The translations under genes and the position numbers were made by a program. From NCBI GenBank assembly GCA_003135135.1, contig PLDK01000007.1, forward strand, positions 2,202 to 66,201: a stretch of 64,000 bases of DNA, in the 5' to 3' direction. This stretch comes from Deltaproteobacteria bacterium. GTDB taxonomy: Bacteria; Desulfobacterota; Binatia; Binatales; Binataceae. Under the pieces are notes generated by a model. The model was not told the origin of the DNA. It was given only the letters and a program-made list of their open reading frames with translations, and did not search any database. This document shows, piece by piece, positions 33,533-63,283 of this stretch (its first letter is position 1; each line of letters starts with the position of its first letter).

Positions 33533-33594
33533 ACATAACCAGCGCTAATTTAGATACAGTAGAGAGTAGCAGACCCTAGCCCCAGCAAAATATA

Positions 33595-35619: not shown

Positions 35620-36846
35620 CTAATTCTCCATCGCGACGCTGGCCAGCACCGAGCCGAACCTGCCGGTAACTTTGATCCGATCGAACCGCAGCTCTGCCAG
35701 ACGGCGCGCCCGCACACCCATCTGCTTGAGGCGTTCCGGCGCATCGACCGCCTCGCGGATCGCGCCGATGAGACCATCGACGTCGCCCGGCCGTACGACA
35801 AAACCGACCGCGTCTTCGCGCGCGATTTGCGCAACCTCCGCACTCGCCTCCATCATTGCGATGAATGGCCGGCCTGCCGCCAGGATTCCGTATACCTTGC
35901 TCGGCACCAGGCATCCCGCCGCACCCGGCGCCAGCGGAATGAGATGGAGATCGGCGGCAGTCAGCGACTCGGCCAGATTCTCCAGCGGCTGATAGGGCAG
36001 GAAAATCACGTTGGGCAATCCCATCGAGCGCGCCCGTTCCTCGAGCCACTTTTTGCGCGCGCCTTCGCCGATCATTGCGAACAGAATGCGCTCGTCATCG
36101 CGCAGCCGGTCGGCGGCCTCGAGCACGGCCTCGAGTTGCTGCGAAAGTCCGATGTTGCCCGAATACATCACGACAAACTTTTCCCCGAAGTTGCGGCGCA
36201 GTGGATTGCTCTCGAGCGGACGGATGCGTTCGCAATCCACCCAATCCGGAACCACCACCACCTTGTCCGCCGGGACGCCCTTGTTGACGATTCGAGCCGC
36301 CATATCATGGCCGAGCGTCACGATCAGGTCGGCGCGCCGGTAGGCGTAGTCGTTGGCGCGCCGCAGCAACCCGAGCAGCAACGGGTTGCGCACTCCGCCG
36401 GTAGCTTCCGCGATATCTGGATAAAGATCCCGCACGTTGTAAATCAGCCTGCATCCCCAGCGCCGTTTCAGGACCGCCGCCAGCGCGCCGAGCAGCGGAG
36501 GATCGGTCTCGGCGACTATTACATCGGGGCGCGGCAGCCGCAATGCCACTACTGCCGCCAATAGGTAGTAGGTACCCAGATTGACTAATCGGCCGAGCAG
36601 GTTCGACTTTGACAATCCCGTCCCCCAGGTGCGAACGATCGAAACCTTGCCGCGTTGTTCGTGCGACCATAAACGAAAGCCCGCAGAACCCCTCTCACGC
36701 GACGGACCCGCCACGATTGTAACCTCGTGGTCGCGCGAAAGATCGTCGCAAAGTTCGGTCAGGAATTGACCGGTAGCTTCGCGGTCAGGCCAGAACGAAC
36801 GGTTTAAGAATAATACTCGCGTTTGACTAACCGGAATTGAACGCAT
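35620..36846 (-). CDS. GT4-family glycosyltransferase (WbuB-like)
   Basis: GT4 C-terminal Rossmann motifs (..VVMYSGNIGLSQQLEAVLEAA...IGEGARK...VIFLPYQP...ADLHLIP...PSKVYGILAAGRPFIA..). ATG at 36844-36846 (MRSIPVSQ). Confidence 0.8.
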   Translation of the reverse strand: MRSIPVSQTRVLFLNRSFWPDREATGQFLTELCDDLSRDHEVTIVAGPSRERGSAGFRLWSHEQRGKVSIVRTWGTGLSKSNLLGRLVNLGTYYLLAAVVALRLPRPDVIVAETDPPLLGALAAVLKRRWGCRLIYNVRDLYPDIAEATGGVRNPLLLGLLRRANDYAYRRADLIVTLGHDMAARIVNKGVPADKVVVVPDWVDCERIRPLESNPLRRNFGEKFVVMYSGNIGLSQQLEAVLEAADRLRDDERILFAMIGEGARKKWLEERARSMGLPNVIFLPYQPLENLAESLTAADLHLIPLAPGAAGCLVPSKVYGILAAGRPFIAMMEASAEVAQIAREDAVGFVVRPGDVDGLIGAIREAVDAPERLKQMGVRARRLAELRFDRIKVTGRFGSVLASVAMEN

Positions 36847-36916
36847 CCAGAAATCGCGCGCCGACTCTGATGGCGCCGGCGGAAAAGCATTTTGCTTTTC
36901 CGCGCCTGCCATAGGA

Positions 36917-37957
36917 TTACGATGCGGAGCCGCGGCGCGCCGCGCTCGATGGATTCTCCAGTGGGCCGAGTGATCCGGCCGCGACCCGATGATCGGCCGC
37001 GCGCACCTGCTGGTCGATCCAGAGATAGGTGCGTCTGAAACCTTCTTCCAGGCTTATCTCGGGCTCCCAATGGAGAACTTGGCGCAGCCGGGTGTTGTCG
37101 GAATTGCGGCCGCGCACGCCTTGCGGGCCTGGCACGTGCTTCTTGGTTATGCTGATCCCCGCCGCCACAGCGACAATATCGGCGAGTTGGTTAATAGTCA
37201 CGAGTCGATCCTGGCCAAGGTTGAGCGGCTCCCGATAATCCGAGCGCATCAACCGGTAGATGCCTTCCAGGCAATCATCGATGTAACAGAACGAGCGCGT
37301 CTGCTCGCCGTCGCCCCAGATCTCGATCTCGGATTGCCCGTTAAGCTTGGCGAGCGACACCTTACGACACAACGCGGCGGGCGCCTTCTCGCGACCGCCA
37401 TCCCAGGTGCCCAGCGGGCCAAAGATGTTATGGAAGCGCACGATGCGCGTCTCGAGCCCGTAATCTTCCCGGTAGTGAGTGCATAGGTGCTCGGTTATGA
37501 GCTTCTCCCAACCATAGGCGTCCTGCGGCTGCGCCGGGTAGGCGTCTTCTTCTTTGAGCGGTGTGACGTTCGGGTCGGTCTGCCTATACTCCGGGTAAAC
37601 GCAGGCGGACGAAGTGTACAGGTAGCGCTTCGCGCCATTCTCGCGCGCCGCGTCAATCGTGTGAATGTTAATCAACGAATTGTTGCGGAGAATCTCGGCG
37701 TGATGCGCCGAGATGAAACCCATTCCTCCCATGTCGGCGGCGAGTGCGTATACCTCGTCGATTCCATCGGTCGCCTTCAGGCAGTTTTCCCACCGGCGCA
37801 GGTCTAACAGCGCGAAGTCGTCGGCCGCGCTCGGCTCATATTCGGGGCGTTTCAGATCCGCGCCGCGCACCCAGTCGCCCTTTCTCTTGAGATAACTCAC
37901 CAGATGGTGACCGATGAAACCACCGGCGCCAGTGACCAGGACTCTCTTCATGAACAA
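36917..37957 (-). CDS. GDP-mannose 3,5-epimerase (GME-type SDR)
   Basis: Near-full-length similarity to plant GME: VTGAGGFIGHHL...LADMGGMGFI...YTSSACVYPE...QDAYGWEKL...RFHNIFGP.GTWDGGREKAPAALCRK...IWGDGEQTRSF..IDDC.EG...REPLNLG...PGPQGVRGRNSDN. A one-nt discrepancy between my indexing and the track at the 5' end is unresolved. Confidence 0.85.
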   Translation of the reverse strand: MFMKRVLVTGAGGFIGHHLVSYLKRKGDWVRGADLKRPEYEPSAADDFALLDLRRWENCLKATDGIDEVYALAADMGGMGFISAHHAEILRNNSLINIHTIDAARENGAKRYLYTSSACVYPEYRQTDPNVTPLKEEDAYPAQPQDAYGWEKLITEHLCTHYREDYGLETRIVRFHNIFGPLGTWDGGREKAPAALCRKVSLAKLNGQSEIEIWGDGEQTRSFCYIDDCLEGIYRLMRSDYREPLNLGQDRLVTINQLADIVAVAAGISITKKHVPGPQGVRGRNSDNTRLRQVLHWEPEISLEEGFRRTYLWIDQQVRAADHRVAAGSLGPLENPSSAARRGSAS

Positions 37958-38045
37958 CTCCTATGCTGGGTGTGCAAGACTAACCCAGCTTCGTGACTTG
38001 AAGTTATAGTTATGATGATACGCATCTTTCGGCCCGCGACGATAG

Positions 38046-39797
38046 CTAATTCCCGCCGCCACGGCGGATGGTGAACTGTCCCATTACCAGCAGGTCCATT
38101 TTCGTTCTGAGAAAACAATCGAGCGCCTCTTCAGGGCGGCAAACCACCGGTTCGTTTTCGTTAAAGGAGGTGTTGAGCAGCACCGGTACTCCCGTCTGAC
38201 GGCCGAACTCGCGGATCAGCTTGTGGTATAGCGGGTTCTGCCGCGCATTCACTGTCTGTAGCCTTCCCGTTCCATCAACGTGCGTCGTGGCCGGAATTAC
38301 CGCGCGCTTCTCGGGCCGCACCGGGTATGCCATCAGCATGAACGGTGACGGATACGACTGCGTGAAGTAGTCAGCGGCGGCTTCCTCCAGAATCGAAGGC
38401 GCAAAGGGCCGGAACATTTCGCGGCGCTTGATTTTCGAATTCAGGATGTCGCGCATCCCGGCCCGGCGCGGGTCGGCCACGATACTGCGATTGCCCAGCG
38501 CCCGCGGACCCCACTCCATCCGCCCCTGGAACCATCCCACCACCTGCCCATCCGCGATCGTCGCCGCAGTCACGCGGCAGAGTTCGTCTTCATCTTCGAT
38601 CTTGCTAATCACGCAGCCCTGACTGGCTATTTCAGATTCGCGCGAACTGAGTAATGCCGCGATCTCGTCGGCGCGGAATTCGGGACCCCAATTGGCGTGC
38701 TCCATCACAAACTCGCGCGGCCGCGATGCGCTCGAATGCCATTGATCGAAAGCCGCGCCTATCGCCAGCCCCGCGTCGCCCGCCGCCGACTGTATATAGA
38801 TGTCCTCGAAGCCCGTCTGCTCCAGGATCTTGCCGTTGACGACGCAGTTGTAGGCGACCCCGCCCGCAAGGCAGAGCTTTTTCAGTCCGGTCGCGCGCTG
38901 CAGGTTGCGCAGCCGATCGAGTATCACTTCCTCGAGCCGCCGCTGCATCGACGCCGCGATCGCGATATGGCGTTTGTTCACCGGCTCGGCCGGGTCGCGC
39001 ACCGGGCCCAGCCGGGTCACCAGGAAGTCCGAGTACAGCCTGCCTATTGTGGGCTCGCCTGCGCGCCACGTCATCTCCCCGCCCGACCTCTGATGGGTGA
39101 AGTATTCCGGCGCGAGCATGAAATCCATGCGCCCGCCGTCCGGCGCGATCACGATCTTGCGGAACTCCTCGAGCATCTCCGGCTCCCCGTACGACGCCAG
39201 CCCCATCACCTTGTATTCGTCGCCGTATTTCGGAAACCCCAGGTACTGCGTCAGCGCGGTGTAGAAGATTCCGAGCGAATGCGGAAATGTCACCGCGCCC
39301 ATCGGCGAAATCGTACCGCCGCGCCCCACACCCCACATCGCGCTGGCGAAGTCGCCCAACCCGTCGATCGAAAACAGCGCCGCCTGGTCGAATGGCGAGA
39401 CCAGAAACGAACTCGCGAGATGCGCGCGATGATGCTCGACGCGGCGCACCGGGATCGAACTCTCGCCGACCCCCAGCGCGCGCGCCGCTTCCGCGCCGAT
39501 CGACGCAAAGCGCGATTGCGCGCTCAACCTGTCGCGCGCGGCCGACGGCATCTTAAGCGCGTACCACGCCTTGCGCATGATTCGCGCCCACGGATCCCGC
39601 GCGACGGCCAAGATGTCGATGTCGCGCGGCGACGCGCCTGCCGCAGACACCACGTACTTCAAGGCCTCGACCGGAAAGCCTGCCGCGTGCTTGATGCGGT
39701 TGAAGCGCTCCTCTTCCGCGGCTGCCACCAGCCTGCCGTCCACGATAGCGGCAGCGCTCGCGTCGCCGTGATATGCGTTGATTCCTACAATTAACAT
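38046..39797 (-). CDS. NodU/CmcH-family carbamoyltransferase
   Basis: MLIVGINAYHGDASAAAIVDG...VEHHRAHLASSF...LCLAGGVAYNCVVNGKI...TSFNENEPVV. ATG at 39795-39797; the 5' 325 codons of the track ORF are a high-GC artefact. Confidence 0.85.
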   Translation of the reverse strand: MLIVGINAYHGDASAAAIVDGRLVAAAEEERFNRIKHAAGFPVEALKYVVSAAGASPRDIDILAVARDPWARIMRKAWYALKMPSAARDRLSAQSRFASIGAEAARALGVGESSIPVRRVEHHRAHLASSFLVSPFDQAALFSIDGLGDFASAMWGVGRGGTISPMGAVTFPHSLGIFYTALTQYLGFPKYGDEYKVMGLASYGEPEMLEEFRKIVIAPDGGRMDFMLAPEYFTHQRSGGEMTWRAGEPTIGRLYSDFLVTRLGPVRDPAEPVNKRHIAIAASMQRRLEEVILDRLRNLQRATGLKKLCLAGGVAYNCVVNGKILEQTGFEDIYIQSAAGDAGLAIGAAFDQWHSSASRPREFVMEHANWGPEFRADEIAALLSSRESEIASQGCVISKIEDEDELCRVTAATIADGQVVGWFQGRMEWGPRALGNRSIVADPRRAGMRDILNSKIKRREMFRPFAPSILEEAAADYFTQSYPSPFMLMAYPVRPEKRAVIPATTHVDGTGRLQTVNARQNPLYHKLIREFGRQTGVPVLLNTSFNENEPVVCRPEEALDCFLRTKMDLLVMGQFTIRRGGGN

Positions 39798-41314
39798 TGA
39801 TGACCGCGAACTGAACCTTTCATTATATCGGCAAATTCCTGCGCGCACGTCGCCGTGCGCAAACCGATGAAATAAGCCGCCGCGTGTGCGTGCGCATCGC
39901 GCGGCCACGCGATCCATAGGTCGCGATTCCATGCCCACGACCGCGCACGGACCAGTTCGGTCCTCCTGCCGCGCGTCCAATCCGGCGGCGGCTGCGCGCC
40001 GGGCGCGCCCATCCAGACCAGGTATGAATCGGCGGAGGCCGCGACATTCGGATCGTCGGGAGCCACTTGGCGCAGCCGGACGTTTCGGTACACGGGCGCG
40101 AGTTCCTTGAGCACCTCGCCGGCGCCCTCGATTTGTCCTCCGGCCGGAACCGCGCGCGCGATCGCCGTCTGCACCGCCGCGTTGGCGCGCAGGAAGTCCT
40201 CGTGGAGCGCGGCTATCACCCCGAAGCACGCCACGAAGGCGGCGAGCGCCGCGCTCCGGCTCGCGGTGGTCCAGGCGAATCCCCGTTGCCCGAGCCGCTG
40301 ATCGAGCCAGCGCGCCGCCGGTATGCACGCGATTACCGATGCCGGCAGGATAAAGCGTTGCCCGGGTATCGCGCCCGCGAGCATCGCCGCCGCCGGCGCG
40401 AGTCCGCTGGTAAGGCCGTCGCGATAACCGTAGAGCGACGCTGCTATCACTACGGCAGCCACCGCGGCGGGGGGTTGCCAACCTCGCGACCACCGCGGCG
40501 AAAGCGCCGCAAGTCCTGCCACCGGGAAAATCACGATCGATGCGACGTAGAACGGGAAGAATGACGCGAAGTGCTCGCCGGTAAACCAGAAGGCCTCGCC
40601 GTTGATCGCATAGCCTCCCCGCAGCGCTGACGCCGTGGTGGCATAGTTGTACGCCCCGAGCGCAATGATCGCCGGCGCGGCGCCCGCCGCGAGCGCCACC
40701 GCGTCGGACCAGCGCCCGGCGCGCGGCCGCGACAGCCACCACGCTCCCGCCGACGCGATCGCAAATACCGCCATCCACTCATGCAGCAGGACCGCGGCGC
40801 CAAGCGCGAGTGCTCCCCAGACGCGGCGCGGGCGTTCGCGCCACAGCAGAGCCACCCCGACTGCGCCCATCGCCGCGCTCGGAACGGCGGCCATCAGCGT
40901 CGCCGAGTAGTAGAGCATCCCGGGCAGGATGAAATACAGGATGCACCAGTCGGTCGCGAGTCCCGCCTCCCGCAGCATCGCGCGCACCGCAAACGCGCCC
41001 ACGATGAAAAACGCCGCACTCACCAGGAACCCGAGCCGCCAGTCGCTCGCAACCGCCGGCGCCAGTAGCATCGCGTGAAACGGCGAGTACTTGACGATGC
41101 GGTGGCCGCCGGCCGCGAGCTCCATCGACGGGTTCCAGGTGAGCAGTCCGGCACGGTCGGGATAAACCGTGCCGTGCGCGATGCTGTAGGCGAGCGAGAG
41201 GATCTCGCACTCGTCGGCAATTGCGAACGAGGCCGGATACTCGAGCATAAAGATCGCGCAGAACGCAGCCACCAGTGCAATGAATAACCACTCGCGGCGC
41301 GCCAACGTTGTCAT
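39791..41314 (-). CDS. polytopic membrane protein, putative GT-C-fold glycosyltransferase (ArnT/PMT-like)
   Basis: About 11 predicted TMs plus a C-terminal soluble domain. Acidic first-loop motif IADECEIL. Start MTTLARREWLF at 41314 overlaps the upstream stop as ATGA. Confidence 0.5.
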   Translation of the reverse strand: MTTLARREWLFIALVAAFCAIFMLEYPASFAIADECEILSLAYSIAHGTVYPDRAGLLTWNPSMELAAGGHRIVKYSPFHAMLLAPAVASDWRLGFLVSAAFFIVGAFAVRAMLREAGLATDWCILYFILPGMLYYSATLMAAVPSAAMGAVGVALLWRERPRRVWGALALGAAVLLHEWMAVFAIASAGAWWLSRPRAGRWSDAVALAAGAAPAIIALGAYNYATTASALRGGYAINGEAFWFTGEHFASFFPFYVASIVIFPVAGLAALSPRWSRGWQPPAAVAAVVIAASLYGYRDGLTSGLAPAAAMLAGAIPGQRFILPASVIACIPAARWLDQRLGQRGFAWTTASRSAALAAFVACFGVIAALHEDFLRANAAVQTAIARAVPAGGQIEGAGEVLKELAPVYRNVRLRQVAPDDPNVAASADSYLVWMGAPGAQPPPDWTRGRRTELVRARSWAWNRDLWIAWPRDAHAHAAAYFIGLRTATCAQEFADIMKGSVRGHQC

Positions 41315-42567
41315 CGTCCCGGTGGCGGCGTCCCATCCGCCCAACCACGCGCAGAGCTGCATCGGCTTGCCGCTGATGCACGGCGGCGAGCATCCCGATC
41401 GCCGCGCTGCGCCAGCAGGTCCTTGTAGAGCGCCAGCATTTCCAGCGCGCATTTGTCCCACGAAAAGCTTGCCGCCATCCACCGCCGTCCGCGCTCGCCC
41501 ATCTCGGCGACGGGCATCGAGCTTATTGTGCTGATTGCGCCCGCCAGGCTCGCGGGATCGTTGCCGACCCACAGCCCGCAGCCGGTCCGCTCGACTTCTT
41601 TCCACGGAGTACCGGTGCTCGCAATCACGGCGGCGCCGTGCGCAAGCGCTTCGGCTACCACTATCCCGAAATTCTCAGTGAACGACGGCGCCACGACGAC
41701 GTCGGTCCGCTCGAACATCCGCTGTTTTTCCTCGCCGCGCAGGTCGCCAAGCAGCGCGACCTCGTTGGACAGATCGAGGTGATCGATCTCGCGGCGAAGT
41801 TTCGCCTCGTAGTCGCTCGAGCCCGAACCCGCGATCGCGAGCGAAAAAACCGGCCCGCTCCGCTCTTTGAGCATGCGGCAGGCGGCGAGCAGATTCTCGA
41901 TTCCCTTCTTGGGATCGAGGCGGCCGACAAATCCGAGCCGCAGCTCAGCGCCGCGTGGCTCGCGATGAAGTGATTGCGGAATCTCGACTCCGTTAGGAAT
42001 TAGTTCGATGGTGGCGCGCGGAAAGCGTGCGCGAGTTTCTTCGACCTCGCTCTCCGAGGTCAGGTGAAGCACCAACCCGCGCGGCGCAACCAGCTTGCAC
42101 ACCTTCTCCCACAGCGACTTGAACCGCACTCGCCGCGACCCGCTCCAGCGCTGCAGCGCGCCATGCGGAGTCCACACCACGGCCCGTTCCAGCATCCGCG
42201 CCACGAGCAAGGTTGGAATGGTCGGAAACGAGTACGCCGCGTGCAGATGAACCACGTCGGCCCAGCGCACGTGTTCGGCGAGCGCGCCGAGAAGTTCGAG
42301 CGATACCGATTGACGCGCGACTCGCCCGCAGTAGCGAACTTCGAATCCTTGGCCGAGCGCGTACGGCGCCTTCTCCGCCGAGTCCAGTTTCCTTCCCGAA
42401 CCGTTCGCGTCCGTAGTCAGCACCCGAACCGCCGCTCCCGCGCGCGCCAGATGCCGGGCAAACTGATACGCCGACTCGACCAGCCCGCCATAAACCCACG
42501 CCGGTGCGAAGAACGGACTTACGTACAGGACGCGCACAGCGCCGGCGTCTTCGTCTGAAGAAATCAC
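41311..42567 (-). CDS. GT4-family glycosyltransferase
   Basis: ..VRVLYVSPFFAP..GG.E...LA...LGFVGRLDPKKGIENLL...VVAPSFTENFGIVVAEALAHGAAVIAS... GTG start at 42565-42567. Confidence 0.8.
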   Translation of the reverse strand: MISSDEDAGAVRVLYVSPFFAPAWVYGGLVESAYQFARHLARAGAAVRVLTTDANGSGRKLDSAEKAPYALGQGFEVRYCGRVARQSVSLELLGALAEHVRWADVVHLHAAYSFPTIPTLLVARMLERAVVWTPHGALQRWSGSRRVRFKSLWEKVCKLVAPRGLVLHLTSESEVEETRARFPRATIELIPNGVEIPQSLHREPRGAELRLGFVGRLDPKKGIENLLAACRMLKERSGPVFSLAIAGSGSSDYEAKLRREIDHLDLSNEVALLGDLRGEEKQRMFERTDVVVAPSFTENFGIVVAEALAHGAAVIASTGTPWKEVERTGCGLWVGNDPASLAGAISTISSMPVAEMGERGRRWMAASFSWDKCALEMLALYKDLLAQRGDRDARRRASAASRCSSARGWADGTPPPGR

Positions 42568-42608: not shown

Positions 42609-43229
42609 TTATGAGGAATACTCAGTTGGCTTGAGTGCCTTCACCATTATTGATTTCCACAAAAAGGGGATCCGTCCGACACCTCGCCATTCAACCGCCT
42701 CAAGCCCTGCCGCTACCAGAGCGGCATTCAGCGTCCGCTTAGACCAGAACTTGATGTGGTTGCCCTCATCTAGGGGCTGGTGGTGCCAATCCCACAAACC
42801 CAGCGCGGAGATCGCAACGTTCTTCAGCCAGCCGTGATAGGGCGTACTCAGGATTACGATGCCGCCAGGGTGCAATGCGCCCGCCATGTTCTTCAAGAAG
42901 GTCACGGGCCGATATAGATGCTCGATGACCTCGATTGAGACCAGGGCGTCGAAGGCGTGATTTGCGCCGCTAAATTCTTCGACCGAACCGGCGATAATGT
43001 CCCAGCTACAATCCGAGGAAGCGAGCAGCGCGCGTGCCTTTTCCAGTGATGGACCCGGTAGGTCGATGCCGGTAACACGGTAGCCCAGCTTAGCCAACCG
43101 ATAGCTAAGTTGTCCCCCGCCGCAGCCGGCATCGAGAACCCGGGCGGGCGCAGGTGGCAGCCACTTCTCCACCACCGGCCAAATGATCGTGTGATGGCTG
43201 AGCTGGGTCAGCTGTATATTTTTGTCCAT
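42609..43229 (-). CDS. class I SAM-dependent methyltransferase
   Basis: VLDAGCGGGQLSYRLAKLGYRVTGIDL...FDALVSIEVIEHL...LHPGGIVILSTP. ATG start MDKNIQ at about 43229. An alternative in-frame GTG at about 43293 lies inside a 41-bp copy of the neighbouring GT4 gene start. Confidence 0.7.
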   Translation of the reverse strand: MDKNIQLTQLSHHTIIWPVVEKWLPPAPARVLDAGCGGGQLSYRLAKLGYRVTGIDLPGPSLEKARALLASSDCSWDIIAGSVEEFSGANHAFDALVSIEVIEHLYRPVTFLKNMAGALHPGGIVILSTPYHGWLKNVAISALGLWDWHHQPLDEGNHIKFWSKRTLNAALVAAGLEAVEWRGVGRIPFLWKSIMVKALKPTEYSS

Positions 43230-43440
43230 CGGGGCGACCTCAGCGGCGCGGCGGACGCGGATAGTGCCGGCGTCTTTGTCTGAAGAAATCACTCTTACGA
43301 TCCTGGCTTGATGCCGAGTAGCGCGACATGCGATGCGGTCCGATACAGATTCATGCCCGATCCCGTAGTGTTCAATAGATGAACGGGCGCGCACGCACCA
43401 TCCGAAGACGCGAATCAGCGGGTCAGTCATGGGGGCGCCT

Positions 43441-44646
43441 CTATTCAGCATGCGAGGCGGGCGCGAGATGACCCGTCGATGGAGGTTCGACAGCGGGTTT
43501 GCGATAGAGCGTTGCCTCCGGCCACGTGGCGATCACGGTCCAATCTGTCGGAGGCTCTTCGATGGGCCAGGTCATCACTGTAATTGCGTCGAAACTCTGC
43601 AGATTGACCCGCATCAACAGCGCGCCCGCCGGAACATCGGCAAGACGATGCACAGGCCGAGTGGGCACGCGCGCCTGGATATCGAGAAGGTGCTCAGAAT
43701 TCGATACGATTTCGGCTCGCGGCAGGCTCACCGAAGCAATCTCCCGCCCGAGCCTTGCGTAACGTGGATCGTTTGCTCCCAGGGAATTGGTGGTCAAGGA
43801 GTTGGCCAATGCGAGCAGCATGGTCGCGCACGCGTAGGCCAACCAGTAGCGCTGCGCACCCGGTATTGGCCTCACAGCCAGCAGCATCACCAGCAGGCCA
43901 TAGGCCATTATTCGCGGATCTGTGTCGAAGTGGCTGACGATCAGCAAAAGCCAGGTCAGACCGAATATCGTTCCACCGAGATACAAATATCGTCTGCCGC
44001 CGCGGGCTCGCCGCAGCGTGCTCAGGCATATGAGGGCGATTATCAGGACCAGGCAGAAAGGAACATAGGCCTCCCACCGCCGGATCGAACCATACCAGTT
44101 CGCCAAAAACGCCCGAAAGAAGAAAAAACCGAACTCGCCGAATCCGCTGATGAGCCTGTGAGGAAGGCTGGCATTGATCACCGGCACCAGCATTGCGCCG
44201 ATAGTCAGGTAATTGAAAACAAATATCCCGGCAATGGCGGATGCCCAAATCACAACGATGATTGCATATCGCGCAAATGATAATGGGCGGCGCTCAGTCG
44301 AGAGAAGGCGATCGGACGCAATCATCGCCGGCACAAAAACAACCGAGACCAGCTTCAGCGGCGTGAGAAGGGCCCACAGGCACCCTCCGACAGTCCTAAG
44401 CCTAGCGCTGTTATCGGCTACGCATCGCGCGCCGAGCAAAAAGATCGCGTAATTCAGGATGTCGGGTTTTGCAAACTTGGCCAGGTCTCGAAAGAAGCCC
44501 ACCCCAAGCACCAGAGCAAGGCCCGCCGACGCCAGACTTGACCAGCCGGCATTCTCGGCAAGCAGATAAACCAGGCCGGCGGCGAGCGCGAGCGAGAAAT
44601 AGTTGATCGCGAATGCGGCCCGCAGCGGCGACCCAAAGCGTGACAA
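43441..44646 (-). CDS. polytopic membrane protein (possible GT-C / O-antigen-ligase-like protein); the N-terminus may continue in another frame up to 44885
   Basis: 9-10 predicted TMs plus a C-terminal soluble region. The upstream small ORF 44691-44885 encodes a TM and a DSDAYNY motif in a different frame, suggesting a frameshift or sequencing error. Confidence 0.4.
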   Translation of the reverse strand: MSRFGSPLRAAFAINYFSLALAAGLVYLLAENAGWSSLASAGLALVLGVGFFRDLAKFAKPDILNYAIFLLGARCVADNSARLRTVGGCLWALLTPLKLVSVVFVPAMIASDRLLSTERRPLSFARYAIIVVIWASAIAGIFVFNYLTIGAMLVPVINASLPHRLISGFGEFGFFFFRAFLANWYGSIRRWEAYVPFCLVLIIALICLSTLRRARGGRRYLYLGGTIFGLTWLLLIVSHFDTDPRIMAYGLLVMLLAVRPIPGAQRYWLAYACATMLLALANSLTTNSLGANDPRYARLGREIASVSLPRAEIVSNSEHLLDIQARVPTRPVHRLADVPAGALLMRVNLQSFDAITVMTWPIEEPPTDWTVIATWPEATLYRKPAVEPPSTGHLAPASHAE

Positions 44647-44951
44647 GAACAGCGAGTAGGCTGGTGGCTCGATATTCAGTGTCTCGCCATTCAGGTTCTT
44701 GTATCCGTGGCCAGCCTGAAAGAATATGCACCCTGGATGTAGTTGTAAGCGTCACTATCCGTCACCGAGATTCGCGGATGCATCAGCAGCGCAGCAACTA
44801 GCACGATCGCCGATAGAATCAGGCTCCGGGCTGCCAATATGGGAATCGAGCGCGTCGCGCCCGCGGTTGCATCATTCTGGGGCATCAGCAGTTCAGACCA
44901 GGGCGGAGATTCTGTCCGGCACGGTAATATTCGCGTTGAATTGTTGCTGGA

Positions 44952-46487
44952 TCAGGCATGACGGACTCCTTTTTCTGAGCTAAGACCGCCTAGCGTCATC
45001 GCGTCAACCTCTGCGGCTCGCATCAGCAAGCCAATCAGCGCGATGAAGATGATGCTCCATGGGATCCCGCCAAAAACCATCGAGGTGGCGGAGCCGATAT
45101 CAAGCAATTTCGACAAAACGTAAACGCCGCCAACCATGGCGCCGAGCCCCATTCCGGGATGAACGTACATCTCGATCAGCAGCCGGTAGATCAACCCGAA
45201 TAAGAACATCCCCGCGATCACTCCGATTAGTCCGAAATTCGCATATAACTCGACTAGCTGCGGCAAATTGATCGAAGTGCCGGTGTTCCCGGCGGAGATC
45301 ATGGCGTAACGATGGCCAAACGTCTGTCCGCTCATCTCTTCCGGTTTGTCGGGCCAGACCGCGCGCGGTATCGGTTTGAACAGGATCGGATAGTAAGTCT
45401 CGCCCCCCCAAAAAGGCACCATTGCGGGCGTGTCCGCGATTACTTCGCCGAACGTTGTGAATTGCGCCAGGCGCAGGCTTCCGAATTCGATCAGAGTTTG
45501 CGGATCCACTTCCCCGCCGATCGTGATGCGGTAAAGAATATCTCCGTACAGGCGGCCTTTCTCGATCTCGCCCGCGTCCGATTGTCTTCCGCTCCACGTC
45601 GCCGCTCGATATGGCACCTCCGCCGGTCGAATGATGAACACCGCCGCAATAGTGCCCAGCAGCAGCGTCTTCCATGGGATCGATCGGCGCACGGAAGCGA
45701 AAATGATTGCGACGGCGACGCCGACCATCAGAGGGCCCCCGGACGAGCCGCCGCCCAGGCCGATTGCGATTCTGACCGGAAGCAGAAACCCCCAGACGAA
45801 TGCCGATGTGATCCGATCCAGTCTTCCCGCCAACTGAAGCGCGACCAGTGTGCAGATTCCAACCATCGATAAGTCAGCCGCGAATACGCCGATCTGGGCC
45901 AGGCTCCCGGGCAGCCCATGCGAGGAGGACAAGAACAATCCCCCGACTCCCAGCATCAGCGCGACCATCCGCACTACTCGCTCGTCGCGCCATTGCAAGT
46001 TGAATCGCGGTAGTATCGGTGCGAATAGCCATCTCGCCGGTCCATAGTATCCGGCGAACATGCAGTAGAGAGCGAGTAGTGAGTATCCAAGCGCCAGCGT
46101 GATGAAATGCGGGGCAATAGGCGGCTTGAACAGTCCAATGACATAGTGCCTCAACAGGAAAACCGGCAGCGCGTATGAATAGATGAACATCAGCGTCAGG
46201 AACGGCATGAACGGGATCGTTCGATCCGCCCCCGACATCCATAGCCAGACCGGAAGCGCGAGCGATGCCAGTATCGCGGACGCGAATACTCGCTCGAGGA
46301 TCGTCGGCGCACCGGGCGCGTAGAGGTTCAGAGCGATCAACGCGATTGCGACCGCCGCGAGCAGCTTCAGCGCCTTGCCCGGACTGGCGGACCCCGGCCT
46401 CAGCGTGGTGATTCGCGCATACCACTCGCCATGCGGCGGATGCAGCGCCGCGGACTCGAACCGTTCAGCCATTGGATTCGATCTCAT
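44952..46487 (-). CDS. Wzy-like oligosaccharide repeat-unit polymerase (multi-TM with large periplasmic loop)
   Basis: More than 10 TMs, a central hydrophilic loop and a C-terminal TM cluster. Starts MRSNPMAERFES inside a roughly 90-bp repeat shared with the start of 46567-48006. Confidence 0.45.
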   Translation of the reverse strand: MRSNPMAERFESAALHPPHGEWYARITTLRPGSASPGKALKLLAAVAIALIALNLYAPGAPTILERVFASAILASLALPVWLWMSGADRTIPFMPFLTLMFIYSYALPVFLLRHYVIGLFKPPIAPHFITLALGYSLLALYCMFAGYYGPARWLFAPILPRFNLQWRDERVVRMVALMLGVGGLFLSSSHGLPGSLAQIGVFAADLSMVGICTLVALQLAGRLDRITSAFVWGFLLPVRIAIGLGGGSSGGPLMVGVAVAIIFASVRRSIPWKTLLLGTIAAVFIIRPAEVPYRAATWSGRQSDAGEIEKGRLYGDILYRITIGGEVDPQTLIEFGSLRLAQFTTFGEVIADTPAMVPFWGGETYYPILFKPIPRAVWPDKPEEMSGQTFGHRYAMISAGNTGTSINLPQLVELYANFGLIGVIAGMFLFGLIYRLLIEMYVHPGMGLGAMVGGVYVLSKLLDIGSATSMVFGGIPWSIIFIALIGLLMRAAEVDAMTLGGLSSEKGVRHA

Positions 46488-46566
46488 TGGTTTGCGCGGC
46501 GCCGACCGCCGCCGGCCTCTGCGATGCTTTCACCGATCGTGCCCCAATGCGGTTAACGGCAGATTA

Positions 46567-48006
46567 TCATGAACCGGGACCGCGCCATGCTTGGGGCGCG
46601 GAGATTAGGCCCGAAAGAAACTGCGGATACGACCAGTCGAAAGCCCGTTCCGGATGATGGTCGATATCGGCGACGACATTCCATCGATTCGTCTGAGGGA
46701 AGGCGCCTCGTGCGTTGATCGCGATGCTGCAGGCCGCCAGTGCAAGTGCAATGCACGCTTCCACGCGGCCGAGCTTTCGCACCGCCAACGGCGGCGCTGC
46801 CGCGAGGCCGAGGATCGCGAGCAAGGCGAACCACGGCACCGTATCGGTCAACACTCGGGGTCCGTACGAGTAACCGCCCCACCATTCGGGATAGCCCGCG
46901 GTTGCAAGTGTAAGCAGCGCGGCGACCAGTATCGCGGCTCCCGCCAAACGGCGCTCAGGGAGCCACCTCCAGTTCCGCGTCACTCGATACAAAACAAACC
47001 CGAGTGTGGGCACAAAGACGAACAAGCCGCGCGACGGGCTGACAAGCAGCCCTGCCAGGTGGACCGGGAGGTCGTGAAACGTGAGCCGTGAGCCCGCGTA
47101 ATAACCTGGAATCCAGGTACCGAAAGCAAGCAGCGAGTACGCGAAGAACGCGATTGCCCACGCAGCGCCGGTGGCGGCGTACGCGATAAAACTGCGGCGA
47201 TGAAACCAGAATAGGTAGACACTGAGCACCGCAATCGGAATCGACGCGGTCGGTCGGCAAAAGTACATCCAGGATAGGATCGTCGCAAGCGTTACGGCCC
47301 GCGGCGGCCGCTCGGAAACCTCGGAGCGCAAGAGCTCAAGTATCGCAATCTGGGCAAGCAGTATAAGCCACGTGCTTGACCACATCGCGCGCGATGCCGA
47401 ACTCCAAACCTGCGTGCCGAACACGCAGACGATGGCGATGATCGCGCTCTCGCCCGCGGGCAGCAGCACACGCGCCGTCCAATATGTTATCACCGTGAGC
47501 AACGCCATAAGGAAAGTCGCAAGGGCCTTCTGGATTATAAATTCTCCGCGGCCGTTATAGTGCCCTTCCGCATTTGCTGTGTGCACACCGAGCAGATTCG
47601 CAACCGCGACGAAGGGTAGCGACAGGAACGAGGTGCCGTGCGGGTATAGATAAATGACGTGCCCATTGACGATACCGAGCTGGTAAATCCCACTGACTTG
47701 GGGACTTATCGGCGGTATGGCTCGCTCAAGATGCGGGACCTCGCCGGGAAGCTTGTATCTATCGAGGAATACGCTGCGACGGTGCAAGATGCTTTCGCTG
47801 AGCAGCATCGAAAAAGCTGAGTCGCCGACATCCAAGTTGCGAGACAACCCGAACACGGCGAACGCCAGCAGGAACAGAGACGACGCAATCGCAAGTTCGC
47901 GTGTCTTTCTGGATGTAGCGCGCATCATCGTTTGACCCGAGTGGCGGGCCCTCTCAGAGGCGTGAGGCGTCGATTCGAACCCTTCAGTCATTCGATTCGA
48001 TCTCAC
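46567..48006 (-). CDS. polytopic membrane protein, putative GT-C-type glycosyl/mannosyl-transferase
   Basis: About 12 TMs. Start MRSNRMTEGFES. Unrelated in sequence to 44952-46487 apart from the first dozen codons. Confidence 0.4.
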   Translation of the reverse strand: MRSNRMTEGFESTPHASERARHSGQTMMRATSRKTRELAIASSLFLLAFAVFGLSRNLDVGDSAFSMLLSESILHRRSVFLDRYKLPGEVPHLERAIPPISPQVSGIYQLGIVNGHVIYLYPHGTSFLSLPFVAVANLLGVHTANAEGHYNGRGEFIIQKALATFLMALLTVITYWTARVLLPAGESAIIAIVCVFGTQVWSSASRAMWSSTWLILLAQIAILELLRSEVSERPPRAVTLATILSWMYFCRPTASIPIAVLSVYLFWFHRRSFIAYAATGAAWAIAFFAYSLLAFGTWIPGYYAGSRLTFHDLPVHLAGLLVSPSRGLFVFVPTLGFVLYRVTRNWRWLPERRLAGAAILVAALLTLATAGYPEWWGGYSYGPRVLTDTVPWFALLAILGLAAAPPLAVRKLGRVEACIALALAACSIAINARGAFPQTNRWNVVADIDHHPERAFDWSYPQFLSGLISAPQAWRGPGS

Positions 48007-49081
48007 TGGTTTGCGCGGCGCCAGGCGCCGCCGGCCTCTGCAATCCTTTCAGCGATCGCGCAGCCTGGATAATTTCGGCCAGCCGATCGCCGTAGGTGTG
48101 CCGCCCCTGCGTGATTTTGCTATGCCCTGCGGCTGCAATCCTGACTCTGTCCTCGTCCCGCCCAAGATAGCTGCGGACCTTGGCGACGAGTTCATCGGGC
48201 GAGTTGAAAAATGCCGCTTCGTTGTCTTCAGAGAATAGCTCGTCGTGGGTGGCGGATCTCTCGGTGAGCATGAAGCCGCCGCATGCGGGAATTTCAAAGG
48301 TGCGCATTACGTGATCGTCGCGATTCGCGCGCCTCACCAGATTGACCGAAATTTTCGCGCCGCCGACGGCCAGCCGGAAATCGCGCCCGGTTGCGTTTCC
48401 GCGCCAATATGGGCGCAGCTTCGGATAGCGATTCCAGTAGCCGCCGTATAGATGCAGGCGAAGCTCCGGGATCGCGCGGACGAGCCTCTCGAAGTATGGA
48501 GCGCGGTCATCGTCGCCGCCGCCGATAAACGTCACGTCGGATTCAAAGCGCCTGCGCTCGTCATCGTTCGCGGGCGTCTCCGGGAAATGGACCTGCGGCT
48601 TGTAACCGAAGCGGACGTAAGCGGCGTTGGCGCATCCCGCGCGCCGCACGTCGTCCATTATCGCGCGCTTGGTGCATACGTAGAGATCATAGAGCGCGAT
48701 CGATTCAACCAGGTCGCGGGTGCTGCTCGCCGGGTTGAAAGGATCATCGGTGGCCCAGTTGACCATCGATGCTCCCGTCGCCGCGCGAACCGCGGCAAGT
48801 GTGGCGGGAGCGAAATAGGCGCCCTTGCCGATCAGCACGAGATCGGGGTGCACGCGCTGCGCCTCGGCGACGAGCGCGGCGTTGAGCGCGCGATAACCGG
48901 CCGGGTGCCCGACAATGCGCCGCACGATTCGCCCCGCGATCGAGCGTTGCGCGCGGCGATACCTGGCTTCATCGAAAAACGTGAACTCGCCTTCGCCGCG
49001 CTCCGCCATCGCCTCGAGCGCTTCAAGGAAGTGCGCGCTCGCAGGCAGAAAGTCGCTTGTCTCAACGTAAAGGATTCGCAC
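47984..49081 (-). CDS. CgeB-like / DUF3880 glycosyltransferase
   Basis: MRILYVETSDFLPASAHFLEALEAM...LIGKGAYFAPATLAAV...CGGFMLTERS... is typical of CgeB-family GTs. Confidence 0.55.
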   Translation of the reverse strand: MRILYVETSDFLPASAHFLEALEAMAERGEGEFTFFDEARYRRAQRSIAGRIVRRIVGHPAGYRALNAALVAEAQRVHPDLVLIGKGAYFAPATLAAVRAATGASMVNWATDDPFNPASSTRDLVESIALYDLYVCTKRAIMDDVRRAGCANAAYVRFGYKPQVHFPETPANDDERRRFESDVTFIGGGDDDRAPYFERLVRAIPELRLHLYGGYWNRYPKLRPYWRGNATGRDFRLAVGGAKISVNLVRRANRDDHVMRTFEIPACGGFMLTERSATHDELFSEDNEAAFFNSPDELVAKVRSYLGRDEDRVRIAAAGHSKITQGRHTYGDRLAEIIQAARSLKGLQRPAAPGAAQTSEIESND

Positions 49082-49127
49082 GCAGTCTCCGGGCTCTCAA
49101 TCAGAGCGGATCAATGGAATCTTCAAT

Positions 49128-50072
49128 TCACCAGTACGAGCCGTTTTCATGAAGGCGGTAATTTCGCGGCCGCTCATCTTCGGATGGACGCGTCCACGCG
49201 TCGTTCACGAACGCGCCGATTTGCGCATTCGATACCCATCGCCCGCCCATAATCCCGAATAGCAACTGCGTCGCTCCGCCCATATGAATCCCGAAGGCGC
49301 CCAACGACTTCGCATGGATTGCCAGTGGTATCGACCATGCCCCCGCACCTATAATCGCGACGTCGAACGGACGCGCGCCAAGCTGCTCCTTCAGCGCTTC
49401 CAGGCCGGTGAACCAGTCGGGAAATTCCGGCTTGTCGATAATTCCCGCAGGCTGCGGGCAGCGCACGATGCGGAGATCAAACGCGGGCAGCACCTCGGGC
49501 TTGGCCGCCCAAATCTTTTCCCGGCGCTGATATTGAGCCCGGATCGAATCCTCGAACGGGCTTACGACGACGACCCGCTTACCTGCCAACTGCGCGCTCC
49601 ATGGCCGTTCATGGTAATACGGTTCAAGCGCGGAAAGCTCGCACAGCGTTGCGCCGGGAGCATAGCGCCGGCGCGCGGCCGCCTCGCCGAAGTTGAACCA
49701 TACGGCAAGCAGGTCGAGACCTCCGAGCGTTTCCAGGTACTCGCGGCAAAAGCGCGACAGCGTCGGCGGATCGGGCGGATAGATGCCCGCGGTGACGTGC
49801 GCCCACCATGCATAGTGCCCGAAATTGTGACAGATGCCGCCCTTGTCCCGCCGGCGCAGGTAAACTCGTGACACCTTGATCTCGGTCGCGCCAATTTTGC
49901 CCGCCGCGCCGCCGTGATGGATCATCGCTGACAATCGGTCATTGCCCTGCTCAGCACTGAGTATAGTCTCGCCCAGAAATTTCATGCGCTCGAGCAGAAA
50001 CCGATGCCGCGCGACCGGCCGAACCAGCGCTTTGGCGCGCGCGATCATTTGTTCACGCATCATGCGGTCCAC
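49128..50072 (-). CDS. hypothetical protein of the polysaccharide locus (possible transferase)
   Basis: 314-aa ORF with good coding appearance (..KRVVVVSPFEDSIRAQYQRREKIW..VAIIGAGAWSIPLAIHAKSLGAFGIHMGGATQLL..). No motif recognised with confidence. Confidence 0.4.
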   Translation of the reverse strand: MDRMMREQMIARAKALVRPVARHRFLLERMKFLGETILSAEQGNDRLSAMIHHGGAAGKIGATEIKVSRVYLRRRDKGGICHNFGHYAWWAHVTAGIYPPDPPTLSRFCREYLETLGGLDLLAVWFNFGEAAARRRYAPGATLCELSALEPYYHERPWSAQLAGKRVVVVSPFEDSIRAQYQRREKIWAAKPEVLPAFDLRIVRCPQPAGIIDKPEFPDWFTGLEALKEQLGARPFDVAIIGAGAWSIPLAIHAKSLGAFGIHMGGATQLLFGIMGGRWVSNAQIGAFVNDAWTRPSEDERPRNYRLHENGSYW

Positions 50073-50091
50073 CAGTTACCATTTTACTATT

Positions 50092-51249
50092 TCACCGCCC
50101 CGCGGCTGCGCATGCGGCGAGCGCGGCCTGATACATCGCCGCCATCTGCTCGCCGTAACTGTTCCATCCGCCCAGCGCGCGCACCCGGGCAAGAGCGGCG
50201 GCGCCCATCGCGTCGCGCACCTCCGGATGCTCACGCAGAAAGACGATTTTGTCGGCGATCGCGGCCCCGTCGCGAATCGGAACGATGAACCCTTCGACAC
50301 CGTCGGTGAACAGATCCTCGGCGCCGGTGTTGGTCGTCGCGATCACCGGAACGCCGCATGCCATCGCCTGCGCCATGACCAACCCGAAGCCGTCCTCGAT
50401 TGACGGGAGGACCAGCACAGAGGCCTGCGAATAATGCGCGGCGAGCTCAGTGCGGGGGAGCACGCCCAGCTGGCGGAGCGGCACATCGCACTTGGCGACT
50501 ACGCGCGCCGCGTCCTTATCGACGTCTCCAATCAGCACCAGGTCGAGCGCCCCAATCGCAGCGCGCTTTACCGCCTCGAGCAGGTAAGCGATTCCCTTGC
50601 GAATCGAAATCGAACCGACAAACAGCACGCGGAAGACGGCGTCGCGCTTGGGCATCGGATGGAACATCGAGAGATCGACGCCGTAGGGATTAAGCCGCAG
50701 CTTGTCGCGCGGCACGCCCTTCTCGACGAACGATCGGAGCGAGAAGCTGGACGGCACGGTGATCAGGTCGCAGAATTCGTACTCGGCAAGCTCGCGCTCG
50801 ATGATGCGCGCGTCGGTCCCGCGATATGGGATGCCGCAGTGCTCGTATTCCTCGCGCAAAATCTCATTTTGGAACGTGATATGCGATGAGCCCCGATCGC
50901 ATACCGTAAGCGCTCGGTACTTTGAGCGCGCTGCTCGATGGCTCTGCAAGCCGAAGCTGGATAGGCAATGGAACACGTCGCACGGCGCGAGCCTCTTCGC
51001 CATCCAGCGATCGAACGTCTCGATCATCGGAAAATTCAGGCGCTCGCGCAGTCCCGGCAATCCAAAACGTCCCGCGAGCTCGGCGGCTCCCATGATCCAG
51101 GGGAAAGTACTTACCTTCGCGGCGGGCAATCCATCCACCTTGAAGCGCGGATAGGCGGTGTAGAGGCGGGTCAGATGGCCGAGGCGTTCCATCTGGCGCG
51201 CCAGATCAAAGGCGTGAAACCGGCCGACGCTGGCTACACAGATCTTCAT
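50092..51249 (-). CDS. GT4-family glycosyltransferase
   Basis: MKICVASVGRFHAFDLARQM...VLFVGSISIRKGIAYLLEAV...LVLPSIEDGFGLVMAQAMACGVPVIAT... Its ATG overlaps the upstream stop as ATGA (51246-51249). Confidence 0.8.
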   Translation of the reverse strand: MKICVASVGRFHAFDLARQMERLGHLTRLYTAYPRFKVDGLPAAKVSTFPWIMGAAELAGRFGLPGLRERLNFPMIETFDRWMAKRLAPCDVFHCLSSFGLQSHRAARSKYRALTVCDRGSSHITFQNEILREEYEHCGIPYRGTDARIIERELAEYEFCDLITVPSSFSLRSFVEKGVPRDKLRLNPYGVDLSMFHPMPKRDAVFRVLFVGSISIRKGIAYLLEAVKRAAIGALDLVLIGDVDKDAARVVAKCDVPLRQLGVLPRTELAAHYSQASVLVLPSIEDGFGLVMAQAMACGVPVIATTNTGAEDLFTDGVEGFIVPIRDGAAIADKIVFLREHPEVRDAMGAAALARVRALGGWNSYGEQMAAMYQAALAACAAAGR

Positions 51250-52478
51250 GATGCCGGCGTTGCCTGCGGCTGCGTAAGATCGCATGCCGGAACTTGGCTG
51301 GGTTTCGCCACACCGCTCAATTCGAAAATGCGATCGAGCACCGGGGCAAAGACACGCTCGTAGTTATATTGTTCCTCGAATGCGCGCCGCGCCGCGCGGC
51401 TCATCGTGGCGTATCGCTCGCGGTCCGCGAAGATCGACGTGATCGCGCGCGCGATCGATCCCGGATCTTCGATGTCGGCATACGTCACCCACTCCGCATC
51501 GCCCAGGAAGTCGCGGTAGCTCTCGCGATCCGGCACTACCACCGGCAATCCCATCGCCGCGTATTCGAACAGCTTGTTGCTCGCCGATCCCAGGTATTCC
51601 AGATTCTTCGTCGCTGGCTTGTGGAGCGCGAGTCCCACCGACGCGCGGGAAGCCCGCGCGCGCAACTCATCAAGCGGCAACCATCCGTCCAGCCGGACTC
51701 GCTGCGTGACGCCAAGCTCGCGTGCGAGCGCGTTGAACCTCGCCTCGAATTCAGCAAGATAGCCGCCGATCACCCGCATCCGAATGCTGCCGTCCGTCAT
51801 CGCTAGCGCGCGCAGTCCCTCCAGATGGCCGTTGGCGGCGCTCGCGTAACCGACGTAAACCAATTCCCGCGCGCGATATCTCATCGCGATCGTCTCGTTC
51901 CAATCTGCCGGCCCGGGAAAGTAACTCCGATCGGGACAATTCGGCACGATTATCGGCGCGCGCGAGTCTCCCGCAGCCGTTAGCCAGTGGCGGGCACGAT
52001 ACTTTTCCGGAAACACTGCTGCATCTGCCGACTTGGTGCCGGTTAACGCCGCCTTTACGACCCACGTTTGCATCGAGGTCCACGAGAGACTCGCCGTCTC
52101 CGGCAACTCGTGGAGGTGAAATATCAGCGGCGTCGCTCTCGCGCCCATCCGCCCGACAATGCTTGCGACCAACGCGTACGGGTCGTACGAATAGACAATC
52201 GCCGGCTGCATCTGCTTGACCAGCGCGCGGGTCCGAGCGATGAATTTCGCATATTCGATCAGCTTTGCACCCGCGCCCGCCGCCTCTTTTTCGCGCGGCG
52301 ATGCGTACGCACCGAATCGCTCGATAGTCACATCGGCGGCCCATTCTTCAATCGGCTCGGCCATGTTCCGGCAAAGAATGTGTATAGTGAAATAGCTACT
52401 TAGTATCCGAACTGCATACACTGTCGGCGGATAATAATCCGGATTCGCGTATATCGTGATAAGCAATCGGGGTTTCAT
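51246..52478 (-). CDS. GT4-like glycosyltransferase
   Basis: MKPRLLITIYANPDYYPPTVYAVRIL...LVYVGYASAANGHLEGL...GLALHKPATKNLEYLGSASNKLFEYAAMGLPVVV... Confidence 0.7.
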   Translation of the reverse strand: MKPRLLITIYANPDYYPPTVYAVRILSSYFTIHILCRNMAEPIEEWAADVTIERFGAYASPREKEAAGAGAKLIEYAKFIARTRALVKQMQPAIVYSYDPYALVASIVGRMGARATPLIFHLHELPETASLSWTSMQTWVVKAALTGTKSADAAVFPEKYRARHWLTAAGDSRAPIIVPNCPDRSYFPGPADWNETIAMRYRARELVYVGYASAANGHLEGLRALAMTDGSIRMRVIGGYLAEFEARFNALARELGVTQRVRLDGWLPLDELRARASRASVGLALHKPATKNLEYLGSASNKLFEYAAMGLPVVVPDRESYRDFLGDAEWVTYADIEDPGSIARAITSIFADRERYATMSRAARRAFEEQYNYERVFAPVLDRIFELSGVAKPSQVPACDLTQPQATPAS

Positions 52479-54942: not shown

Positions 54943-54994
54943 GAGTTAACCGGGTAGAAGACGGGCTCGTTCCAGGATGTTCATGATTTCCGAT

Positions 54995-56026: not shown

Positions 56027-56164
56027 TGCGGGCGTTCCTCGAAAACCGGCGGGCCTGACAGGCTGCGCCGCAACCCCTGCGGAAGCATCGGCGACAGCAT
56101 TCCCGCAACTTTGGCGGGCAGCATCGCCCACCCCAGCCGGAAATAGGTCTTCAGCATCCGCGGA

Positions 56165-57127: not shown

Positions 57128-57181
57128 GCAATCCCTCCGTCTGCAACGCTGGCTCGTGCCAGGAAGTTCATGATTCCCGAT

Positions 57182-59556: not shown

Positions 59557-59758
59557 TGCGCTCACGATGACACAAAGAGCAGCCGCATTTCGTCTCTTCC
59601 CACTACCCCCTTCTAGCAGGCCGTCCGGCCGCATCTTTGTTTTAACATTGGGTGCATGGCTTACCCCTGGCCGTTGGCACGGCTGGCTCTTCCATGGTGT
59701 AGTCGCGAAAAGATGCGCTGCGCAGATTTTCGCGTCTTTTTAACACCGGGTGCAGGGG

Positions 59759-60961: not shown

Positions 60962-60987
60962 CGCGGGTTGGCGCCGGCCGCGCGGCA

Positions 60988-62080: not shown

Positions 62081-62200
62081 GAATGCGTGCCGAGTGTATA
62101 GATGGCGGCATTGCGAGTTGGATGCGTCCGCCCGAAGTTGTCAACTAAAGTAGGAGGAAATCCCGTGGGTTGCGAACCGATCGTGAGCAGCGACGCGGCG

Positions 62201-63256: not shown

Positions 63257-63283
63257 AAATTTGCCGGAGACGGACGTTTCTGT

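Follow-up and report, generated by a model that had tools for sequence, protein, structure and literature searches.

The polysaccharide locus described here raises the question of what a GDP-mannose 3,5-epimerase (GM35E, or GME) does in a bacterium and which sugar it would supply. An initial annotation of the 64-kb stretch of DNA that we analyzed (here called the window) had assigned one short-chain dehydrogenase/reductase (SDR) gene to GME, had called it plant type, and had predicted L-galactose or L-gulose in the polymer made by the surrounding genes. Our analysis leads to the view that this gene very probably encodes a GM35E within an approximately 28-kb Wzy-dependent operon, with a predicted role in supplying GDP-L-galactose for an L-hexose of the polysaccharide.

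Results

Start codon and product of the GME gene

The gene had been reported as a 346-aa open reading frame (ORF), and the ORF listing of the window agreed: the ORF fills exactly positions 36917 to 37957 on the minus strand. The TTG start of the listed ORF, at 37957, sits directly behind an AGGAG Shine-Dalgarno sequence (37962 to 37958), while an ATG at 37951 lies 6 nt 3' of the AGGAG and gives a product of 344 aa. The start region on the minus strand reads cccagcatAGGAGttgttcATGaagaga, and the N terminus of the 344-aa product is MKRVLVTGAGGFIG. An identical 344-aa product has been called on contig PLZK01000029.1 of GCA_003153535.1 and, in JGI metagenomes, on several contigs of 80 to 100 kb, whose gene order is the same as that of the window. 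Because of the spacing from the AGGAG and these identical public gene calls, we dropped the TTG start; the real start is almost certainly the ATG at 37951.

The protein is an orthologue of GME

Pfam placed the protein in the Epimerase family (PF01370, NAD-dependent epimerase/dehydratase family; 1.2e-45). When the PDB was searched with phmmer, the top five matches were all GDP-mannose 3,5-epimerases, namely, the Arabidopsis chains 2c59, 2c54, 2c5a, and 2c5e together with 8sg0 (E values of 4e-117 to 3e-116, 392 to 395 bits, query residues 5 to 320). The best of these, 2c59 (E value of 4.2e-117, 394.6 bits), aligned over chain residues 31 to 344, and the query was 53.5% identical to Arabidopsis GME across 312 aligned residues. 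Thus, the whole-length GME alignment that had been claimed is real, with the last ~25 residues (321 to 346) forming a C-terminal tail beyond the aligned GME core. The next PDB families were GDP-fucose synthase at 98 bits and then UDP-xylose synthase at 96 bits. Full-length similarity to GME is therefore well above that to other NDP-sugar SDRs, and there was no better match to a GDP-fucose synthase or a 4,6-dehydratase.

The top NCBIfam model for the protein, however, was GDP-L-fucose synthase (Fcl/WcaG, NF047922; E value of 5e-37). This model ranks first because the NCBIfam library contains no GME model, and its score of 127.9 bits against an equivalog cutoff of 500 bits places the protein outside that family. 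Our assignment to GME is based on the PDB chains and on JGI names; JGI names the protein family GME, and NCBI records label it "NAD-dependent epimerase/dehydratase family protein." We weighed a reading in which there is no more than a resemblance to GME and the protein is a GDP-L-fucose synthase (GMER/Fcl/WcaG) or a different epimerase/reductase of 4-keto-6-deoxy sugars. Besides the NCBIfam ranking, this would fit the adjoining glycosyltransferase, which is WcaI-like, since WcaI takes GDP-fucose. The Escherichia coli GDP-L-fucose synthase (WcaG/Fcl, GMER; PDB 1BSV) also belongs to the SDR superfamily, acts on a GDP-sugar, and catalyzes 3,5-epimerization. However, the PDB scores (394 bits for GME, 98 bits for fucose synthase) argue against this assignment, as does the acid/base pair, which is the Cys/Lys of GME and not the Cys/His of GMER (PMC8787198). 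GMER also needs a prior GDP-mannose 4,6-dehydratase (PMC8787198), and the window holds no such gene (gmd) to provide the substrate. We therefore rejected the fucose synthase reading, which these scores, the catalytic pair, and the absence of gmd from the window make extremely unlikely.

The catalytic residue set is complete. Taking the K178R mutant chain 2c54 of the PDB alignment as the reference for residue numbers, we found the Rossmann NAD-binding motif at G10-A-G-G13-F-I-G16 (GxxGxxG), the SDR triad at S117/Y148/K152 (Arabidopsis S143/Y174/K178), and the acid/base pair for epimerization at C119/K191 (C145/K217), together with R284 (R306). None of the six mechanistic residues (S117, C119, Y148, K152, K191, and R284) varied across the 80 related loci, and wherever the alignment covers them (78 to 79 of the 80), the three motif glycines were kept as well. 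The QTRSF and GVRGRNSDN segments are identical to those of the Arabidopsis enzyme, and GGREKAPAA holds the catalytic K191. The roles that we assign to these residues are those described for Arabidopsis GM35E and for a bacterial enzyme, MfGM35E (PMC6678494; reviewed in PMC8787198). At the level of sequence, the protein has all the features that define membership in GM35E (EC 5.1.3.18).

It could be asked whether a GME-family enzyme with this residue set acts on another nucleotide sugar or performs a single epimerization, for example, giving GDP-D-altrose. GM35E reactions have been seen to give GDP-D-altrose on the side, and substrate promiscuity of homologues is under discussion (PMC8787198). 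The identity to Arabidopsis GME, the two identical segments, and the position of K191 speak against such a change, and the query is as far from the plant enzyme as the characterized bacterial GM35E is. We regard a different substrate or a single epimerization as highly improbable and keep GDP-D-mannose 3,5-epimerization as the predicted reaction.

GME is widespread among prokaryotes

At least 8,000 relatives were present in the protein database at an E value of ≤1e-20, a cutoff that is SDR-wide, with GME-level relatedness shown for the best 120 of them, all of which were ≥77% identical to the query. Many close homologues are named GDP-D-mannose 3',5'-epimerase by JGI, and the 90%-identity cluster of the protein has 120 members, several of them named Candidatus Binatus sp. 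With each species represented by one genome, at least 595 species genomes contained a relative. The best 80 of these were 63 to 86% identical to the query and included Binatia, Chloroflexota, Acidobacteriota, Gemmatimonadota, Planctomycetota, Actinomycetota, Rhodothermales, Gammaproteobacteria, Cyanobacteria, Saccharibacteria, and two methanogen metagenome-assembled genomes (MAGs). Among the matches listed, the closest reference-genome loci came from Binatia-type MAGs (loci L001, L002, and L039). We therefore attribute the window to an uncultured bacterium similar to Candidatus Binatus.

Arabidopsis GME is 48 to 58% identical to the best 80 relatives (median, 52.5%), and the 50.5% reported for MfGM35E, whose activity is biochemically verified, falls within this span. 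The label "plant-type" is thus misleading, and the protein is better placed in a broad orthologue group that takes in prokaryotes as well as plants. The further statement that L-galactose and L-gulose residues are uncommon in bacteria holds for the reported sugar chemistry but not for gene content. GMEs of Methanoregula (L036), Methanomicrobiales (L061), and Saccharibacteria (L019 and L077) are 65 to 77% identical to bacterial ones. That methanogenic archaea and CPR bacteria with reduced genomes carry such genes suggests transfer between domains and between phyla.

The GME gene lies near the end of a Wzy-type polysaccharide locus

The polysaccharide setting described in the initial annotation was borne out by GT4 and GT2 glycosyltransferase genes, a Wzy-like polymerase gene, and Wzz- and Wzi-like genes (Table 1). 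The stretch from ~63.9 kb down to 35.6 kb, with nearly all of its genes on the minus strand, is a Wzy-type locus of ~28 kb, in which GME is the second-to-last gene and a GT4 gene is the only one to follow. The order from ~63.9 kb is Wzi-like, weak Wzz-like, three to four GT4s, GT2, SAM methyltransferase, and a second GT2, followed by a PMT_2/GT-C-like gene, an FkbM methyltransferase, three GT1/GT4-type genes, the Wzy-like polymerase, and a methyltransferase, and, at the 3' end, by GT4, a 507-aa membrane protein, an O-carbamoyltransferase, GME, and the last GT4. A plus-strand ORF of 389 aa (54977 to 56146) is a shadow of the minus-strand GT2 gene at 54995 to 56131 (PF00535, 1.4e-35) and was discarded. 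Neither manB nor manC was found within the 64-kb window, and tRNA and Rfam scans of it were empty.

Table 1. Features of the GME gene and the surrounding polysaccharide locus
Feature	Position(s) in window	Strand	Basis or remark
GT4 glycosyltransferase, WcaI-like	35620..36912	-	NF007640, 207 bits
GDP-mannose 3,5-epimerase (GM35E/GME) orthologue, 344 aa	36917..37951	-	Similarity, residues, start analysis
AGGAG Shine-Dalgarno sequence, 6 nt upstream of ATG 37951	37958..37962	-	Read from sequence
O-carbamoyltransferase, NodU/CmcH/TobZ family, 583 aa	38046..39797	-	Pfam and PDB matches
Polytopic membrane protein, 507 aa, no Pfam/NCBIfam match	39791..41314	-	Between GT4 and carbamoyltransferase
GT4 glycosyltransferase, HpsP/XrtY-associated-like; first gene of cassette	41311..42567	-	
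Remainder of Wzy-type locus	42609..63898	-	Family matches
SAM methyltransferases	42609-43430, 56165-57127	-	
Wzy-like polymerase	44952-46472	-	
GT4/GT1 genes	47984-49081, 50092-51285, 51246-52478, 58210-59634, 59759-60988, 60988-62280	-	
FkbM methyltransferase	52475-53392	-	
PMT_2/GT-C-like gene	53293-54942	-	
GT2 genes	54995-56131, 57182-58525	-	
Weak Wzz-like gene	62201-63256	-	
Wzi-like gene	63284-63898	-	

Bacterial GME genes typically reside in polysaccharide loci. Among 117 immediate GME neighbors in 66 other loci, the commonest families were Wzz/GNVR/BY-kinase (10 to 13) and Bac_transf initiating transferases (11), with GT2 (7), WecG (6), GT4 (5), and methyltransferases (5) further represented. 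Across 75 other genomes, the genes next to GME were mostly of the Wzz/BY-kinase, initiating transferase, GT2, WecG, and GT4 kinds.

Several other features of the window were observed. Convergent with the exopolysaccharide (EPS) operon, the plus strand (30314 to 34800) encodes three beta-helix proteins in a row that match Pect-lyase_RHGA_epim weakly, and one of them also bears a choice-of-anchor D domain. They may be polysaccharide lyases or epimerases working on the product of the locus. In the JGI population variants L081 and L083, the middle beta-helix gene is fragmented into small ORFs. Two very large adjacent ORFs of 1,084 and 804 aa (12099 to 17771, minus strand) had no Pfam match at 1e-5 and adjoin genes for a patatin-like phospholipase (19251 to 20960) and a TIG-domain protein (21003 to 21983). 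The plus-strand region from 855 to 11538 resembles a mobile or repair region and encodes an rve-family integrase (855 to 1943), a nonhomologous end-joining (NHEJ) pair of Ku (3456 to 4361) and multidomain LigD (4434 to 7169), a TPP enzyme (7944 to 9698), and a serine-recombinase-domain protein (10201 to 11538).

A WcaI-like glycosyltransferase and an O-carbamoyltransferase flank GME

The glycosyltransferase gene after GME begins 4 nt past the GME stop codon, and this short gap between stop and start suggests that the two genes are translationally coupled. The GT4 protein matched the WcaI family (NF007640) over its full length (residues 32 to 426 against model positions 2 to 407 of 411), and WcaI was its best glycosyltransferase family by ~75 bits over any other. 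The score of 206.9 bits is below the 276-bit subfamily cutoff, and the protein is WcaI-like rather than a certified WcaI member. L-Fucose is 6-deoxy-L-galactose, and together with the WcaI likeness this makes the GT4 the obvious candidate user of GDP-L-galactose; we infer that it is an L-galactosyl or L-gulosyl transferase. WcaI itself is one of the two colanic acid transferases that use GDP-L-fucose (PMC12075129). The initial prediction of L-galactose or L-gulose gains some support from this downstream, coupled gene, and a residue of one or the other sugar in the polymer of the locus can reasonably be expected.

Upstream of GME, 94 nt lie between the end of the carbamoyltransferase gene and the GME start. 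The carbamoyltransferase carries both Carbam_trans_N (PF02543, 2.8e-55) and Carbam_trans_C (PF16861, 7.9e-73) and is similar over residues 3 to 578 to 7xb6, GdmN, NovN, and TobZ (E values of 1e-96 to 1e-75), which places it among the NodU/CmcH/TobZ O-carbamoyltransferases. The 583-aa product given by the gene callers matches the solved carbamoyltransferases end to end. A longer mechanical ORF of 910 aa (38046 to 40778) was rejected; the ~327 residues at its beginning are rich in Arg and Gly and come from reading through the high-GC upstream gene in another frame. We likewise rejected the idea that the GC-rich 1.5-kb "gap" upstream of the carbamoyltransferase gene is an insertion or artifact, as it holds the gene for the 507-aa polytopic membrane protein. 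That gene is missing from the otherwise syntenic locus L002, where the GT4 and carbamoyltransferase genes abut.

We surveyed the cassette by tblastn of the locus proteins of the window against 80 GME loci. The order GT4, carbamoyltransferase, GME, and WcaI-like GT4 was kept in three Binatia loci (L001, L002, and L039) and, in more divergent form, in one Chloroflexia locus (L031; carbamoyltransferase, 52%; GME, ~76%; GT4s, 26 to 33%), and carbamoyltransferase and GME were adjacent in all four. A WcaI-like glycosyltransferase gene was directly downstream of GME in L002, L039, L031, and the Anaerolineaceae locus L030, more weakly in L017, and within 2 to 8 kb of GME in L003 and L058. In L001, the WcaI-like gene 3' of GME (11033 to 12368) is split into ORFs at 11033 to 11641 and ~11667 to 12368, which reflects a frameshift, a pseudogene, or an assembly error.

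We also considered GDP-L-gulose as the physiological product. The enzyme would then have the GME fold and mechanism but epimerize at C5 only, as proposed for BlmG, and the cassette would build a bleomycin-like unit of L-gulose and O-carbamoyl-mannose. GM35Es do release GDP-L-gulose besides GDP-L-galactose (PMC6678494, PMC8787198), and the bleomycin sugar consists of L-gulose and 3-O-carbamoyl-D-mannose made via BlmG, BlmD, and BlmE/F (PMC7017467, PMC8787198). The full-length TobZ/GdmN/NovN-type enzyme directly upstream of GME, the flanking GT4s, and the gene order kept in Binatia and one Chloroflexia genome are consistent with such a unit. However, a carbamoyltransferase was present at only 4 to 5 of the 80 GME loci, and every characterized GM35E makes mainly L-galactose. 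The downstream glycosyltransferase resembles an L-fucosyl (6-deoxy-L-galactosyl) transferase, which fits L-galactose better than L-gulose, and the likeness to BlmG and BlmD is one of enzyme classes and adjacency. GDP-L-gulose as the physiological product is thus improbable, and GDP-L-galactose is the product that we prefer.

Discussion

By analogy with its counterparts from Arabidopsis and Methylacidiphilum, we propose that the GME of this locus would be a self-sufficient, NAD-dependent enzyme. C4 of GDP-D-mannose would be oxidized by bound NAD+ together with the Ser117/Tyr148/Lys152 triad, the Cys119/Lys191 acid/base pair would invert C5 and C3, and Arg284 would tune the cysteine. Rereduction of the 4-keto intermediate would then yield GDP-L-galactose, and the side products known from characterized GM35Es, GDP-L-gulose and a trace of GDP-D-altrose, are predicted here too. 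Because the window lacks manB, manC, and gmd, GDP-mannose presumably comes from housekeeping genes outside it. The coupled WcaI-like GT4 most likely adds the L-hexose to the lipid-linked repeat unit, which the O-carbamoyltransferase and the methyltransferases of the locus probably decorate before Wzy would polymerize it.

Three known systems help to place the locus. The query and Arabidopsis GME (2C59/2C54/2C5A/2C5E) share the extended-SDR fold family, their identity extends over query residues 5 to 320, and with the same catalytic set the same 4-oxidase/3,5-epimerase/4-reductase chemistry can be expected of the query. The two differ in the NAD motif, which is GxxGxxG in the query and GxxGxxA in the plant enzyme (alignment; PMC6678494). 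They also differ at the ends: the N-terminal extension of ~27 aa in the plant enzyme is missing from the query, whose short C-terminal tail is its own. The predicted role of the query is polysaccharide synthesis, whereas that of the plant enzyme is ascorbate or cell-wall synthesis.

MfGM35E of Methylacidiphilum fumariolicum was the first bacterial GM35E to be characterized and was proposed to serve lipopolysaccharide (LPS)/polysaccharide synthesis (Gevaert et al. 2019, PMC6678494). Like the query, it is a bacterial stand-alone GM35E with the same conserved motifs, and its distance from Arabidopsis GME is similar (50.5% identity reported, slightly below the 53.5% of the query). Its host belongs to the Verrucomicrobiota, whereas that of the query is a Binatia-like MAG, and the legend of Figure S3 in the same paper indicates no large EPS operon in its gene neighborhood (PMC6678494).

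The third system is the bleomycin BlmC-G cassette of Streptomyces verticillus, which makes a disaccharide of L-gulose and carbamoyl-mannose (PMC7017467, PMC8787198). BlmG is its GDP-mannose epimerase and BlmD its O-carbamoyltransferase, and glycosyltransferases complete the set; in the window, enzymes of these classes are encoded next to one another. However, BlmC-G decorates an NRPS-PKS aglycone, whereas the cassette of the window lies in a Wzy-type polysaccharide locus and is without a GDP-mannose pyrophosphorylase. A literature search on GDP-L-gulose together with carbamoyltransferase found nothing, and one on GDP-L-galactose together with O-antigen found nothing beyond the 2019 bacterial GM35E paper and a cyanophage paper.

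The GME gene itself is a sound but routine annotation, as bacterial GM35E is already an established enzyme class. The cassette of carbamoyltransferase, GME, and WcaI-like glycosyltransferase is mildly novel as a parallel to the bleomycin sugar module. We suggest only tentatively, and with doubt, that it might be a dedicated module adding a carbamoylated L-hexose, or a bleomycin-like L-gulose/carbamoyl-mannose disaccharide, to a surface polysaccharide. If so, abundant uncultured hosts of soil and peat would make a polymer chemistry so far undescribed in bacteria, and the cassette would be a ready source of L-sugar glycosyltransferases.

Because the NCBI HMM library has no GME model and the genes are named only by their general epimerase/dehydratase family, the L-galactose/L-gulose capacity of environmental bacteria is systematically underreported. 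To our knowledge, almost no polymers with L-galactose or L-gulose have been assigned. Thus, there is a gap between genes and chemistry, with GME in at least 595 species genomes, mostly next to genes for polysaccharide assembly, and one characterized bacterial enzyme. The pairing of GME with a WcaI-like glycosyltransferase points to candidate L-galactosyl and L-gulosyl transferases, and such L-sugar transferases are wanted for L-glycoside production (PMC8787198).
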